27,492 bases of DNA from an uncultured Bacteroidales bacterium (GTDB lineage Bacteria; Bacteroidota; Bacteroidia; Bacteroidales; AUK083): assembly GCA_964395505.1 (NCBI GenBank), contig CAYNBX010000001.1:1-27492 (forward strand), read 5' to 3'. Made by a program: the position numbers and the translations under genes. Every line of letters starts with the position of its first letter. The stretch's first letter is position 1. Under the pieces are notes generated by a model. It did not search any database, had not been told where the DNA came from, and worked only from the letters and a program-made list of their open reading frames with translations. Of the stretch, positions 3,265 through 7,421 are shown one piece after another.

Positions 3265-3832
3265 TTGAAAAATAATAAAAATTTTAAAAAAATCAGTTTA
3301 GGAATTTATGCCCTTAAAGATTATAAAGAAGAAAATAAAAAAACAATTATAGAGGATAAAATTAGAATGCACTCATATATTGAAGGTGTTTGTATTGAAC
3401 TTGGTAATTTTGAAAAATATTTAACTTATACCGCAGATCCTTCAGCTAATTATAAAGATAACATATATTTAAAAAGACCTAATTACTTTAAATGAAATAC
3501 CACTTTTTACCTATAATGAAATTATTGATAGTGTAAAACGAATTGATGTTTTATGGTTTAATAGAAAAAGTTACAAATTTCCTAAAATAGCCTATGAAGT
3601 AATTGATAGTATTGGAACATTAGAAAATGCGTTTTCAAGGACCTTTCAATTATCTGATTTTGCAACTAATTTTTTCTTAATAGGGAAAAAAGAGTTTAGG
3701 AAAAAATTTGATAAAATAGTTAATAAGAAACCTTTTAACGAAATGCCTAATCGTTATAACTTTAAATCATACGAAGAAATTATTGATTTTTATGAAAAAA
3801 AAGTTGAAATTGAAAAAATAAAATTTTATTAA
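3265..3832 (+). pseudogene. Frameshifted PD-(D/E)XK-like, restriction-endonuclease-like gene, possibly 5'-truncated
   Basis: Removing one A from the A5 run at 3471-3475 joins ORF 3265-3495 to an open frame ending at TAA 3830-3832: ...IELGNFEKYLTYTADPS..YLKDLITLNEIPLFTY.EIIDSVKRIDVLWFN..AYEVIDS.... The ID(x)n(F/Y)EV pattern resembles a nuclease core. Family assignment is from memory. Confidence 0.6.
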
Positions 3833-3833
3833 G

Positions 3834-4752
3834 ATGAGAAGTGATTTTATATATTTAAAAATTGAAGTTCCTAAAAATGCCACAGATTGTAATAAAATTA
3901 GAGAACAAGGTTTGTTTTTTGAGTATATTTCAGAAATACTGAATTTAAATAGGGAAAATATTACTGAAATAGATAATGATAATTTTAAAAAAGAATTTGA
4001 TATATTTTTGAAAAATCAAAAGCTGATTTAATTTCAAAAGTTGCAAAATACCCAAACAGGTATATTGGATTATTTCGCCCTACAAAACCAAAAGAAAAAC
4101 TCTTGCAGAATTTATTGCAATCACATGAAATTCGATTTGGGGATGCTTTTGAGAAATTGATTGAAGAATACCTAATAGAAAACAATTTTACAATTTTAGA
4201 TAACAACTTTACTGACAGTGCTGGAAATAGGTTAAATGTTGACCAATTTTTTAAGAAGAATAATCATTATTATTTTATTGAGCAAAAAGTAAGAGATGAC
4301 CATGACTCAACAAAAAACGTGGACAAATCAATAATTTTGAAAAAAAATTAGAAATAATTATTAATAATTTTGGAGATAATAATTTAAGCGGTTTTTTCTA
4401 TTTTATCGATCCTGAATTAATTAATAACAAAAAATTCTATGAGGAAGAATTAAATATTATGTCACAAGATTATGGTGTAGATTTATATAATTGTTACGGT
4501 AAGGACTTGTTTGAAAGTTTAGAAATTGGTTTTGTTTGGGATGAAATTATATAATATCTAAAAAAATGGCGAGATGAATTACCTGATATGCCAGAAATAA
4601 ATTTTGATAAAGAATCAAAACAAAGTTTTAATGAAATAAAAGATTTATCACCAAGTATATTTAGAAAATTATTTTCAAATACTGAATTGTTTGAGCAAAT
4701 TGTAAAAACGATATTTCCTGAAAATAAGGTTTTGCTGCTGCTAATTGATTAA
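3834..4752 (+). pseudogene. HpyAIV-family type II restriction endonuclease pseudogene
   Basis: Reconstructed protein IFEKSKADLISKVAKYPNRYIGLFRPTKPKEKLLQNLLQSHEIRFGDAFE..VDQF..YYFIEQKVRDDHDSTK(K)RGQINNFEKKLE..YFIDP..DYGV..CYGKDLF..WDEI..KWRDELPDMPEINFD closely follows HpyAIV as I recall it. Lesions: -1 frameshift near 4001-4003, -1 frameshift in the A6 run at 4312-4317, and in-frame TAA at 4552-4554. Confidence 0.8.
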
Positions 4753-4840: not shown

Positions 4841-4971
4841 GCCTAATGGTTAGTATATGGCTTGCAGCGTTTTTCGGAGCAATTTTCTTTCCTCGCGAAA
4901 CGGACTTGGCTAAGAGCTGAATACCTAAAATTTAACATTTCACCCGCCATAAACTATATGCATTATTACCC
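4841..4971 (-). other. attC-like recombination site (131 nt) downstream of the T9SS-cargo cassette gene
   Basis: Minus strand: GGGTAAT (R''-like), then GCATATAGTTTATGGCG, a central region, the partly complementary arm CGCTGCAAGCCATATAC, and ATTAGGC (R'-like). It starts 16 nt after the stop codon. Core AAC/GTT has decayed to AAT/ATT. Confidence 0.6.
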
Positions 4972-4987
4972 AATGTAATTCTTTAAT

Positions 4988-5596
4988 TCATTCCAGAATT
5001 ACAGCCTTCATCATTACTTTTTTATCAGTGTATGCTTTAATAAAATATACTCCCTTTGTTAAATTGCTTAAATCCAGCTCTGTTCTTTCCAGATTTCTTT
5101 TAATAACTTTACCTGATTGACTTATTATATCAATTCTTTTAATTTTTAATTTTGAATCTATTTTTAATTTACCTGTTGTAGGATTTGGATACAATTTCAA
5201 TTTTGACTGTATCTTTTCATCTATTCCAAGGGCAGAGCCATAACAATATGCAGAATCAATATAAATTGATTCCTGTTGAGTGTAATTATAGACTGCTGTA
5301 ACATGGATCCAGAAGGGTTGATCATTATACAATAAAAAGTCCTCACCGCAATTTCCACCACATTCATCATGATAAAGTGAGGTATCAGTTTGAAATCTAT
5401 ATAAGTCTGTTTCCCGATAAATATTATAACCAACCAGAGTGTCCTGTGATGGCTCAGGTAGGCCCCAAGATAAAATAAAATAATTATGTGGACAGACATA
5501 CCAATGACTCCACTTTAAATTATTAATTGGGTTTAATTGTCCGAATGCCGATTGGAAAAATGCTGAAATTACAATAATTATGATTGATTTTTTCAT
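4988..5596 (-). CDS. Small secreted protein with a T9SS C-terminal sorting domain and an Fn3-like beta domain (gene cassette 2)
   Basis: Signal peptide ending AFG-Q; LSWGLP...VGYNIYR...VTAVY pattern; CTD LYPNPTTG...DLSNLTKGVYFIK. Flanked by attC-like sites. Confidence 0.8.
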   Translation of the reverse strand: MKKSIIIIVISAFFQSAFGQLNPINNLKWSHWYVCPHNYFILSWGLPEPSQDTLVGYNIYRETDLYRFQTDTSLYHDECGGNCGEDFLLYNDQPFWIHVTAVYNYTQQESIYIDSAYCYGSALGIDEKIQSKLKLYPNPTTGKLKIDSKLKIKRIDIISQSGKVIKRNLERTELDLSNLTKGVYFIKAYTDKKVMMKAVILE

Positions 5597-5620
5597 ATCA
5601 TGGATTTTTTAATTTATGTT

Positions 5621-5751
5621 TGCCAACGGTGGTGGTATGTTTTAGTTGCCAGTTTCGGAGCATTACATTTTCAAGTTATGATGAACTTGATGCGAGCTAC
5701 ACCCTTTGAATTTACTACTATCTCAACAATTAAATATACTACGTGTTAGCA
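5621..5751 (-). other. attC-like recombination site (131 nt) downstream of the TA cassette
   Basis: Minus strand: TGCTAAC (R''), then GTATATTTAATTG, a central region, CAACTAAAACATAC, and GTTGGCA (R'). The arms pair with one extra base. It starts 5 nt after the antitoxin stop codon. Confidence 0.75.
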
Positions 5752-5756
5752 AGCGT

Positions 5757-6323
5757 TTAGATTGTTTCCTTGTCTGTTAGTTTCAATTTCATTTTAATTC
5801 CTCTGTTTTTTAATTCATCTAAAGTATGTTTAATATGATTTGTTATTTTAGTTTTTAAAAATGGCGGAACCAAATCTTTCAAATCAATATCAAAAAGTCT
5901 GTGAAGAACAATGATGTCATCACGAGAAAATGGTCGTACTCCATTCATCAATTCTGACATATAATTTGGTCTGTGTCCTAATATTTTCGCTAAATCTTGT
6001 TGCGAAATACCATTCTCTTTTAACTTAATTCTAATTAATTCCTTTCTTTTCTGAACAAAATCACTTTCAGAACTAACAATTCTTTCGGCTATGTCACTTT
6101 CCTTAATTTGCTTATCGCTTATTTTGGTTTCATCATTCCAATGAGTTTGCTCATAGAACTTAATTAATGATCTTAAATGCTGTTTAATCGGTTCTATAGA
6201 TTTATCCTTTTTAACCATCCATCTTAATTTCCCATAAATAGAAATGGCTTTCTCGTATTCCAATTCACCGTTAAGTTCATCTAATTTCAGTATATTGTCA
6301 ATTTCTAACCTTTCCATAATCAT
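5757..6323 (-). CDS. HigA-like antitoxin / XRE-family HTH regulator
   Basis: HTH motif ISQQDLAKILGHRPNYMSELMNGVRPFS; N-terminal LRSLIKFYE segment; directly downstream of a HigB-like gene. The start may be the second Met (6317). Confidence 0.75.
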   Translation of the reverse strand: MIMERLEIDNILKLDELNGELEYEKAISIYGKLRWMVKKDKSIEPIKQHLRSLIKFYEQTHWNDETKISDKQIKESDIAERIVSSESDFVQKRKELIRIKLKENGISQQDLAKILGHRPNYMSELMNGVRPFSRDDIIVLHRLFDIDLKDLVPPFLKTKITNHIKHTLDELKNRGIKMKLKLTDKETI

Positions 6324-6324
6324 A

Positions 6325-6666
6325 TTATTTAATTTTCCCTTGTTTTCTCAACCACTTTTCTATTGTCCTTTTATTCCCTTTAAAAACCTTATCGTATTCT
6401 GCATGATTTCCAACCCAGAGAACTTCTGCTTCTTGTTCTTCAAATACGATCAAAATCATTGTTCTGTGTATGTTAATATCAAAAAAGAAAAAATTATCAC
6501 TATGAACTCTGTCAGCGTCAGGTCGTAATTTAATAACATCCATTTTGTTTTTCCACTCTGAATTTTCTATTTCAGAAATCAATCGGTCAATTGCTTTTAA
6601 CAGCCTGATATTCCCCTGATTTTTTCTCTTTAATTTCAATAACTTGCTTTTGTGTATTATATACAA
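6325..6666 (-). CDS. HigB-like (RelE superfamily) toxin
   Basis: 113 aa with EIENSEWKN..D...RPDADRV...FFFDI..HRTMILIVF...VLWVGNHAEYDK, as in HigB-family toxins. TTG start; arranged toxin-then-antitoxin. Confidence 0.75.
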   Translation of the reverse strand: MYIIHKSKLLKLKRKNQGNIRLLKAIDRLISEIENSEWKNKMDVIKLRPDADRVHSDNFFFFDINIHRTMILIVFEEQEAEVLWVGNHAEYDKVFKGNKRTIEKWLRKQGKIK

Positions 6667-6687
6667 TTTATTCCTTTTAAATTTTTA

Positions 6688-6720
6688 CAAAGATACAAAA
6701 TTATTCCAAATAAAATGGAA
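6688..6720 (-). promoter_or_regulatory. Cassette-borne promoter (-7 TATCTTTG) and candidate operator palindrome TTCCA-N7-TGGAA
   Basis: TAnnTTTG match at 6688-6695 (minus strand), 21 nt before the toxin start. Inverted repeat at 6704-6708 / 6716-6720. Confidence 0.5.
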
Positions 6721-6765
6721 CTTTATATTTTTTTAATTCAAGTTGAAACAGTGGTCGAACCTAAT

Positions 6766-6840
6766 GCTTGCTAACTTGTGTGTATCACCTATTGTTGTTA
6801 TCCCTCTTATTTGGTGGGATAACAACAATTGTGTATATTT
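6766..6840 (-). other. attI-like region: perfect 14-bp inverted repeat followed by a GTTAGCA crossover core
   Basis: attgttgttatccc (6791-6804) / gggataacaacaat (6816-6829). The minus strand then reads GATACACACAA-GTTAGCAAGC (core at 6775-6766). Confidence 0.55.
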
Positions 6841-6867
6841 TTCTTTTATCATTTCTTAATCTCCTCT

Positions 6868-7421
6868 TTAAAAAAAATCATTCACAGGATTTTTTATTTT
6901 AGTAATTGCTTTCTTTGACACATGAGTATATATTTCAGTAGTTTTAGAACTATTATGACCTAATAATTCTTGTATATATCTTAAATTTGTTCCTTGTTCC
7001 ATCAAGTTAGCAGCAAATGAATTTCTTAGTGTGTGCATCGTAACCTTTTTCAAAATACCTGTCTTTGCTGCTGCTCGTTTTACTATTTTTTCCATGATAA
7101 CAGCACTGTAAGTCCCACCATCAATTCAATCAAATACCAACTCTTTCGGTTGAAATACAGTAAAATATTCTTACAAATATATAACAATTTTTTTACTTAA
7201 CAATGTTATCCTATTTTTTCCCTTTCGCACTTCTAATGTTTATGATATCCCTTTCAAAATTAATATTTTCCTTTTTAATTTTTTTATTTCACCCAATCGC
7301 AAACTACCGGAATAAGTTATCATTATCAAACATTTGCGTTTCAAATTATCTGTAACACCAATCATTCGTTCTATTTCTTCCTTACTCAGTACTTAGGTAA
7401 CACCTTTTCGGATTGGGGATT
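6868..7421 (-). pseudogene. Tyrosine recombinase/integrase pseudogene, 5'-truncated, with frameshifts and stops
   Basis: Manual translation: NPQSEKVLPK(V)LSKEEIERMI..NLKRKCLIMITYSGSLRLGEI..IRSAKGKK(D)RITLLS..L*EY..FD*IDGGTYS..KVTMHTLRNSFAANLMEQGTNLRYIQELLGHNSSKTTEIYTHV. The R, K, HxxR, H and Y motifs are visible. Only the last 75 codons are an open frame. Confidence 0.85.

Follow-up and report, generated by a model that had tools for sequence, protein, structure and literature searches.

Introduction

Canonical integrons, especially the 'reverse' integrons of Treponema and those of archaea (PMC3607928, PMC9668308), are the described systems closest to the locus reported in this work. They combine a recombinase gene beside an attI site, entry of cassettes at attI, a junction at a GTT triplet, mostly co-oriented and permuted single-gene cassettes, and attC sites with an R''/L''/L'/R' layout that carries AAC...GTT; their chromosomal arrays include toxin-antitoxin (TA) cassettes, and their cargo is highly varied and includes defence genes. 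Here we describe a platform that shares these features and differs in its recombinase, which is short and lacks the additional domain of the integron integrase (IntI). The locus under study lies on the minus strand of a 27,492-nucleotide (nt) stretch of DNA from an uncultured Bacteroidales bacterium (GenBank assembly GCA_964395505.1, contig CAYNBX010000001.1, positions 1 to 27,492; hereafter the window, to whose positions the coordinates of the locus refer). Read from 7419 down to 4837, it is very probably a decayed chromosomal copy of such an integron-type gene-capture platform.

Surveys of integrons have selected IntI by its additional domain (PMC2426708, PMC4889954, PMC9668308). With IntegronFinder 2.0, the Bacteroidetes yielded only In0 elements and one complete integron, that of Salinibacter ruber (PMC9024848), and the literature speaks of 'clades previously found without any integrons'. 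A classification of tyrosine recombinases describes the insertion as 'not fully conserved' in its integron-like subgroup and makes no link to cassettes (PMC8138268). In the current account, the passage from double-strand to single-strand recombination is proposed to have come with the gain of the I2 helix (PMC7790495, PMC4792948). Our search of the full-text literature, with subscription journals outside its reach, found no description of cassette arrays headed by a short integrase.

In intact relatives, the platform is made up of three parts: a tyrosine recombinase of the Xer/IntI clade, ~278 residues long and without the I2 additional domain; an attI-like site ~100 nt past the integrase's own stop codon; and an array of co-oriented cassettes, each ending in an attC-like imperfect palindrome, usually of ~138 nt, laid out as R'' (nnnnnnAAC), L'' stem, variable loop, L' stem and R' (GTTnnnnnn). 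The cassettes behave as separate units, circularly permuted, which enter at attI and are swapped with GTT as the junction. Judging from sequence, the adjacent short integrase is the presumptive enzyme that moves the cassettes, and attC would recombine as a folded single (bottom) strand. On balance, and with considerable room for doubt, we favour the view that these loci form a class of integron that is widespread but has not been described before, whose integrase lacks I2 and which captures and shuffles cassettes with attC-type hairpins at a GTT core. Its hosts would be found in Bacteroidota (Flavobacteriales, Bacteroidales, Cytophagales and Chitinophagales), in Ignavibacteriota, Chlorobiales and Nitrospirota, and probably in Cloacimonadota, Lentisphaerota and others.

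A family of short integrases

With the repaired window fragment as query, a family search found thousands of proteins of ~278 residues that carry SAM_4 and Phage_integrase domains. Twenty-three aligned homologues are 68-85% identical to one member, P0003, and the source names, where given, among P0003-P0120 are Lentisphaeria, Cloacimonadota, Deferribacteraceae, Calditrichaceae, Desulfuromonas and Desulfothermus. Identity of this order across phyla is unusually high for the recombinase of a mobile element and suggests either horizontal spread or strong constraint.

In profile searches, the intact homologues exceed the cut-off of NF040815 (XerA_Arch; 222-245 bits against 220), whose product name at NCBI is 'site-specific tyrosine recombinase/integron integrase', and fall below that of TIGR02249 (205-223 against 265 bits), to which they align in two stretches with model positions ~178-240 skipped; against NF011946 they reach 121-145 bits, for a cut-off of 435. 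In alignment with VchIntIA (PDB 2a3v), family residues 8-178 correspond to residues 8-178 and family residues 201-276 to residues 243-318, with 22 family residues (179-200) facing 64 in VchIntIA (179-242). An AlphaFold model (predicted local distance difference test score, pLDDT, 79.6) has a short strand segment and no helix between the helices at 170-183 and 200-213, and the top Foldseek matches bring together IntI4 (2a3v; 1.9e-16) and XerA (3.6e-16 and 1.2e-15). From the profile scores, the VchIntIA alignment and the model of intact homologues it follows that the insertion which defines IntI, comprising the additional domain, the I2 helix and the patch III region, is absent family-wide and not merely from the broken copy in the window.

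The original prediction had counted about 60 codons between the KGKK motif and the HxxR box of the window integrase, which is correct, and had put the missing IntI insertion at roughly 100 residues, which is too many: the deficit is ~42 residues, and ~100 is the length of the whole KGKK-to-HxxR interval in IntI. Its proposal that the repaired protein lacks the insertion is borne out by the repaired protein itself and by the intact homologues. Measured against canonical integrons, the short integrase thus has ~42 residues fewer, no additional domain and scores under the cut-offs of the integron-integrase hidden Markov models, and its hosts are mainly Bacteroidota and other non-Proteobacteria.

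With the XerA, XerC and XerD recombinases, which resolve chromosome dimers at dif, the short integrases share their size, the two-domain build of SAM_4 and catalytic domain without an extra domain, and a score above the NF040815 cut-off, and XerA structures are among their best matches. They differ in that they do not sit in a conserved housekeeping context, are often pseudogenes (as in the window, and also in locus L001), and are tied to a cassette array instead of a single dif site with a 6-8 bp spacer. No conserved partner gene was found beside the integrase, and the upstream neighbourhoods are unrelated between loci. In one marine lineage (P0055; L162-L171) the integrase gene lies in an operon-like tkt-rpiB context and begins 3 nt after rpiB, a spacing from which it may be co-transcribed with these housekeeping genes and not stress-induced, as many intI genes are.

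attI-like and attC-like sites

A scan of one genome per species gave 80 loci (L002-L081), and the family analyses cover 81 loci. In most of the 80, a palindrome whose loop is CCCAAAWTTGGG-like lies past the integrase stop codon, and beyond it comes a core with the consensus T-9 A-8 Y-7 A-6 n A-4 nnn GTT (TAYAnAnnnGTT), at a median of 101 nt past the stop. Within 300 nt past the integrase stop, the R'' of the first attC is complemented at 8 or more of its 9 bases in 33 of 36 loci. An insertion site next to the integrase gene, such as an integron should have, is thus present in the form of a conserved palindrome plus core at which the cassettes diverge. The long palindrome with its characteristic loop sets this attI apart from that of canonical integrons. 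By contrast, the co-orientation of the integrase with its array and the entry site on its 3' side, which the original prediction had set against the usual divergent arrangement, are present but not unique, as attI also lies just 3' of a co-oriented integrase in archaeal integrons (PMC9668308). One locus (L017, 6916-6990) carries a 32-nt 'empty' unit directly at attI, with GTTCAGAGC..GCTCTGAAC, a short GC-rich hairpin and GTTCAGAC in this order, which may be a mini-cassette without an open reading frame (ORF) or the footprint of an excision.

The cassettes themselves can be seen in Flavobacterium sp. NRK F7 (L056) and F. cheonanense (L059), where sites of ~138 nt, built as R''(nnnnnTAAC)-L''...L'-R'(GTTAnnnn), stand between co-oriented ORFs of 130-310 residues. 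A first covariance model (R1) was built from ten such sites, whose RNAalifold stem shows compensatory changes in 13 of 16 pairs; applied to the 81 loci, it found 57 sites, in every case on the integrase strand. A second model (R2), built from 57 R1-found sites in other genomes and from none in the window, found 95 sites, all 95 of them on the integrase strand. Although 390 kb were searched upstream and only 201 kb downstream, 92 of the 93 complete R2 sites lie downstream of the integrase. Among the loci with at least 1.5 kb of downstream sequence, 31 of 38 have a site, and several of the remaining 7 carry shorter sites that R2 missed. As a negative control, R2 was run on 1.03 Mb of unrelated metagenome sequence, taken from the surroundings of orthologues of a methylmalonyl-CoA mutase subunit gene that neighbours the window locus, and had no match at E<=1. 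Homologues of the integrase are systematically followed, as had been anticipated, by co-oriented attC-like sites and variable genes.

These sites have the make-up of attC, namely an R''-L''...L'-R' imperfect palindrome with AAC and GTT in which structure is kept over sequence. In an alignment of the 95 sites, whose fitting to the model inflates its pair counts, standard pairs fill 89.2% of the pair cells; shuffled alignments reach 58.3%, and sliding the partners leaves no more than 36%. Double changes occur in 16 of 16 L-stem pairs. Folded as single-stranded DNA (ssDNA), the family sites have a median z of -3.07, and the bottom strand is the stabler one in 75 of 93.

Three features of the family sites may act as marks. 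The spacer between R and L is asymmetric, being a single A on the 5' side but 5 nt long (e.g. AAACC, GGAAC) on the 3' side; the A/C mismatch conserved in CAAT/ACTG would become a G-T wobble on the bottom strand; and many of the loops contain a TCCGAAAWTT motif. They are candidates for marks of strand choice or protein recognition that would replace the extrahelical bases read by I2, and the 1-nt/5-nt spacers and the TCCGAAA motif of many sites are also points of difference from canonical attC. The sites fall into length classes of ~60-75, ~138 and ~200 nt, short sites (58-74 nt) occurring in L034, L039, L041, L047 and L058 and long ones (~194-203 nt) in L018, L019, L037, L045 and L073. Arrays tend to hold one class (5 of 5 sites of ~200 nt in L037; 3 of 3 of ~71 nt in L041), and canonical integrons are alike in this respect, attC similarity being greater within arrays than between them.

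Permuted cassettes, their cargo and their turnover

If cassettes are exchanged by crossover at GTT, the R'' of each cassette is expected to be complementary to the R' that precedes that same cassette, since the unit is circularly permuted. This signature is found: 5.55 of 6 positions are complementary, with a perfect match in 43 of 55 cases, compared with 2.55 of 6 for the R' of the same site and 2.28 of 6 for the R' of other loci. The cassettes are thus discrete permuted units with a G/TT crossover, the junction being located to the GTT and not to a single phosphodiester. Their median length is 840 nt, and 113 cassette ORFs are co-oriented with the integrase as against 13 in the opposite orientation. 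The cargo is diverse: 109 cassette ORFs match 117 Pfam families, no one of which occurs in more than 3 ORFs, and it includes restriction-modification enzymes, a reverse transcriptase, hydrolases, redoxins and beta-lactamase-fold proteins. In 34 of 80 loci the contig breaks off no more than 700 nt downstream of the integrase, as against 2 of 80 for the same distance upstream, an excess to be expected if a variable or repeated region begins there.

The closest view of turnover comes from the P0055 lineage, whose integrase occurs as an exact sequence on 22 marine-metagenome contigs. Ten places retrieved from these contigs share 100.00% identity over 1,534-2,400 nt, with the full 2,400 nt reached in eight, through tkt, rpiB, the integrase gene and the attI-like region, and split exactly past ...ATATACACGTACGTT into five different first cassettes. 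One of them (L166) has the arrangement of L164 plus one cassette at attI; the attC of this cassette ends GTT|ATTTGCAATAAATAAACC, and ATTTGCAATAAATAAACC is the start of the first cassette in L164, L167 and L169. Two others (L162 and L168) are identical for 1,311 nt and split directly past the GTT of the first attC, and the second cassette of L162 follows a different cassette in L163. R2 finds attC sites in the P0055 loci too. Taken together, this comparative evidence points to insertion of cassettes at attI and exchange at GTT, and cassettes appear to be turning over now in at least one marine lineage. In a further lineage with an identical integrase (P0029; L173-L178), most contigs stop 101-199 nt past the stop codon and the same first cassette is present, so that this lineage adds no evidence of polymorphism.

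Locus L001, which carries P0077, the closest homologue fragment, has the same order of elements as the window, namely integrase stop, hairpin, GTTAGCAGC, co-oriented genes and ..GCATAAC... Between 848 and 6708 it shows a frameshifted integrase gene and then a single multi-gene cassette of 5.8 kb (Dcm methylase, HATPase, an unknown gene, HNH and Vsr) with a 60-bit attC-like end. A whole defence module thus lies in one cassette, next to the integrase that is the closest relative of the pseudogene in the window.

The decayed copy in the window

The elements that had been predicted for the window are all present, near the positions given for them and all on the minus strand, in the order integrase pseudogene, attI-like site, higBA cassette, attC-like site 1, a cassette with a type IX secretion system (T9SS) tail protein, and attC-like site 2. 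The pseudogene of the tyrosine recombinase, of the Xer/IntI clade, occupies 6868-7419 (PF00589, E 2e-31) and retains only the catalytic C-terminal part. Intact homologues (P0003 and P0057) align to it by tblastn over residues 103-277 only, at 50-51% identity, and the N-terminal ~100 codons are therefore absent. In-frame stops lie at 7393-7395, 7171-7173 and 7126-7128; the KGKK box sits in another frame, in a frameshifted stretch at ~7270-7200, and is followed there by a stop at 7211-7213; and the RHSF of the family has become RNSF. The gene is thus a truncated and multiply disrupted pseudogene. Among the NCBIfam models the fragment matches NF040815 best (122 bits), with TIGR02249 second best, in two stretches, and it aligns to the intact homologues without a gap across the short KGKK-HxxR interval.

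Past the integrase stop, the attI-like site (6764-6832) consists of a palindrome of 14-17 bp, with arms at 6832-6816 and 6804-6791 around the loop CCACCAAATAAGAGG and an ssDNA fold z of -4.9, and of the core GATACACACAAGTTAGCAAGC at 6783-6764, which reads GATACACACAA-GTT-AGCAAGC and places its GTT at 6775-6773, 92 nt past the integrase stop. Cassette 1 (5627-6774; 1148 nt) runs from the TT of this core to the G of the first R' and contains higB, higA and attC-like site 1. Its start, GTTAGCAAGC (6775-6766), and its own R'', GCTTGCTAAC (5754-5745), just 3' of the higA stop, are reverse complements at 10 of 10 positions. The attC-like site 1 (5753-5617; 137 nt) has R'' CTTGCTAAC, an L''/L' stem, a central GCTCCGAAA motif and R' GTTGGCAAAC. 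Cassette 2 (4847-5626; 780 nt) contains the gene of the T9SS-tail protein and ends in attC-like site 2 (4973-4837; 137 nt).

In an unfiltered R1 scan of the complete window, the two predicted sites were the two best matches, with 36 bits (E 2e-6) for site 1 and 18.3 bits (E 0.021) for site 2, both full length and on the minus strand. R2 gave 53.5 bits (E 3.8e-10) and 40.1 bits (E 3.8e-7), again full length and on the minus strand, the next-best match in the 27.5 kb being at 9.4 bits (E 2.4), and its alignment contains 19 of 20 standard pairs in site 1 and 18 of 20 in site 2. The hairpins accordingly have homologues elsewhere, as models trained on other genomes find both of them, and the original prediction, which called them attC-like, is borne out by homology and structure; as hairpins, they are not better folders than shuffled sequence. 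No third attC-like site beyond site 2 appeared in the R2 scan of the window. In site 2, pairing is retained despite the loss of the conserved triplets; the last site of L056 (12478-12646) has ATT without a matching change on the other side.

The genes higB (6666-6325; HigB_toxin, PF09907, 2.9e-15) and higA (6323-5757; HTH_3, PF01381, 6e-7) are 1 nt apart and have the toxin-then-antitoxin order of a type II TA pair. A TAtcTTTG box at 6695-6688, 21 nt before the higB start, fits what we take to be the -7 promoter motif of Bacteroidota, and higBA probably has its own promoter there; read-through from the co-oriented integrase gene is a possible source of array transcription. The protein of cassette 2 (5596-4988; 202 residues) has a signal peptide and, at its C-terminus, the tail of T9SS cargo (Por_Secre_tail, PF18962, 2.4e-13; TIGR04183, 1.5e-10, cut-off 23). 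By tblastn against the 81 loci, the three cassette proteins of the window revealed no cassette in common. The TA cassettes of sedentary chromosomal integrons (PMC13108822) likewise hold a HigBA-type pair with its own likely promoter, but the window higBA is the first of two cassettes in a dead array, in which a stabilising role may be supposed.

With its integrase a pseudogene and site 2 devoid of the AAC and GTT triplets, the array is most likely immobile, barring a recombinase acting in trans, which agrees with the earlier description of this copy as frozen. The window copy is a fossil of its class, of small functional consequence beyond the intact HigBA pair and the secreted protein.

Alternative explanations and implications

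The platform shows each testable hallmark of an integron (attI, attC, permuted cassettes and a GTT junction) except the feature that defines the integrase. Several points weigh against reading it, and the window locus with it, as an integron-type system. Recombination by integrons was reported to depend on the additional domain (Messier and Roy 2001, cited in PMC9668308 and PMC2426708), so that activity without it is unexpected. The loci are mostly metagenome-assembled genomes or metagenome contigs, and the pair counts from alignments A3 and A4, including the 95-site covariation, are inflated by the fitting of these alignments to the model. In the window, the start of cassette 2, GTTGGCAAAC, mismatches its own R'' at 3 of 6 variable positions. 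The closing C:G pair of site 2, present in 92 of 94 family sites, is altered on both sides, with ..GGGTAAT in R'' (AAC to AAT) and ATTAGGCGCAAT in R' (GTT to ATT). Both window sites fold no better than shuffles (z of +0.2 and -0.6; with DNA parameters, -0.28 and -1.34). Lastly, a metagenome synteny search found no near relative of the window locus, the nearest mutase orthologue being 64% identical and without the array beside it, and the history of this copy is therefore not traceable.

The alternative that survives best accepts the platform as described, and has the short integrase act on double-stranded or cruciform sites by classical two-strand exchange, an activity resembling the one presumed to be ancestral. 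We regard this as unlikely, though it deserves to be taken seriously: the short integrase lacks I2, whose gain is proposed to be the step from double- to single-strand exchange (PMC7790495). Against it, the half-sites of attC lie ~100 nt apart in duplex DNA and are joined only through intrastrand pairing, the stem is kept by covariation and not by sequence, and the bottom strand is the stabler fold in 75 of 93 sites.

Less probable again, and in our judgement a poor fit, is a division of labour in which the arrays are ordinary cassette clusters of the kind found without IntI (CALIN-like), moved in trans by a canonical IntI elsewhere, while the short recombinase performs Xer-like resolution or stabilises the array. 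The R'' and R' boxes (nnnTAAC ... GTTRnnn) do look like the core of canonical attC, such clusters are common and canonical IntIs are promiscuous in their choice of attC (PMC4889954), and the additional domain is held to be necessary for activity (PMC9668308). Searches with IntI profiles would, moreover, probably place the short-integrase loci among these clusters, if the standard attC model detects their sites. The arrays described here differ from such clusters, however, in being headed by a dedicated recombinase and an attI: no gene but the integrase is conserved at the head of the array, its orientation is always that of the cassettes, the insertion point lies a median of 101 nt past its stop in the conserved palindrome-plus-core, turnover takes place exactly there, and surveys find near-zero IntI in Bacteroidetes (PMC9024848).

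A remnant of a canonical integron, whose IntI lost the additional domain by decay in the window copy alone, would account for the heavy damage to the gene, in which a deletion is conceivable, and for TIGR02249 as the second-best NCBIfam match; we consider it hardly tenable, as intact and highly conserved homologues, with a mutual identity of 70-85%, have the same short interval, to which the window aligns without a gap. Decay of a canonical IntI is refuted by these homologues. We give next to no credence to the absence of any cassette system, that is, to a phage, integrative and conjugative element or transposon integrase remnant beside unrelated TA and secreted-protein genes with hairpins that are chance structures or terminators, which would agree with the shuffle-level folding of the two sites and with a repeat search (seed 7) that left both hairpins unflagged and did not list the 10-nt inverted repeat of attI and R'' among its 226 pairs, but is contradicted by the specific covariance-model matches, the 10-nt complement between attI core and R'' and the same architecture family-wide, a composition artefact being excluded by the 1.03 Mb control. 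Hairpin strength alone, with the window sites at shuffle level, would have discarded a true feature.

We thus retain the reading of an integron-type platform with a short integrase, and the earlier proposal of a separate cassette-capture lineage without the IntI insertion finds support in the short interval of intact homologues, the attC arrays, the permutation signature and the polymorphism at GTT. The platform is common in Bacteroidota, a phylum held to be nearly integron-free, and surveys have found it so partly because the integrase is defined by its additional domain. If the reading is true, surveys with IntI profiles have overlooked much of the diversity of integrons, and either the I2 helix is dispensable for recombining folded attC, or this lineage keeps, or has reverted to, a state of the integron that precedes I2. 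By joining the other hallmarks of integrons to a minimal, Xer-sized integrase, the platform bears on the shift from double- to single-strand substrates, and since several carriers are culturable Flavobacterium and Polaribacter strains, the question is directly testable. It also opens a large and unexplored pool of cassettes.

Flanking genes and minor observations

The locus is flanked by chromosomal housekeeping genes (methylmalonyl-CoA mutase subunits, RsmG, an OPT transporter and a 2-oxoacid:ferredoxin oxidoreductase) and also by a GH18/CUB/T9SS protein, and the GC content of the window is ~27%. Two T9SS sorting domains, together with the gene content, point to Bacteroidota as the source. 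The window has no Rfam match at gathering thresholds and no tRNA gene by ARAGORN, and hence no integration site of the tRNA type. Just past attC-like site 2, on the plus strand at 3265-4752, lie two decayed genes of opposite strand to the array, with frameshifts and stops. They show PD-(D/E)XK-like motifs (..RIDVLWF..AYEVIDS.. and ..VDQFF..IEQKVRDDHD..), and one fragment weakly matches UPF0102 (E 0.0038); these may be remnants of restriction endonucleases, or a third, inverted cassette without attC. Within this stretch, 3903-4001 (plus strand) weakly resembles residues 235-267 of the integrase family by tblastn (E 0.047, 42% identity), which could be due to chance or could be a far older second integrase remnant in the opposite orientation.

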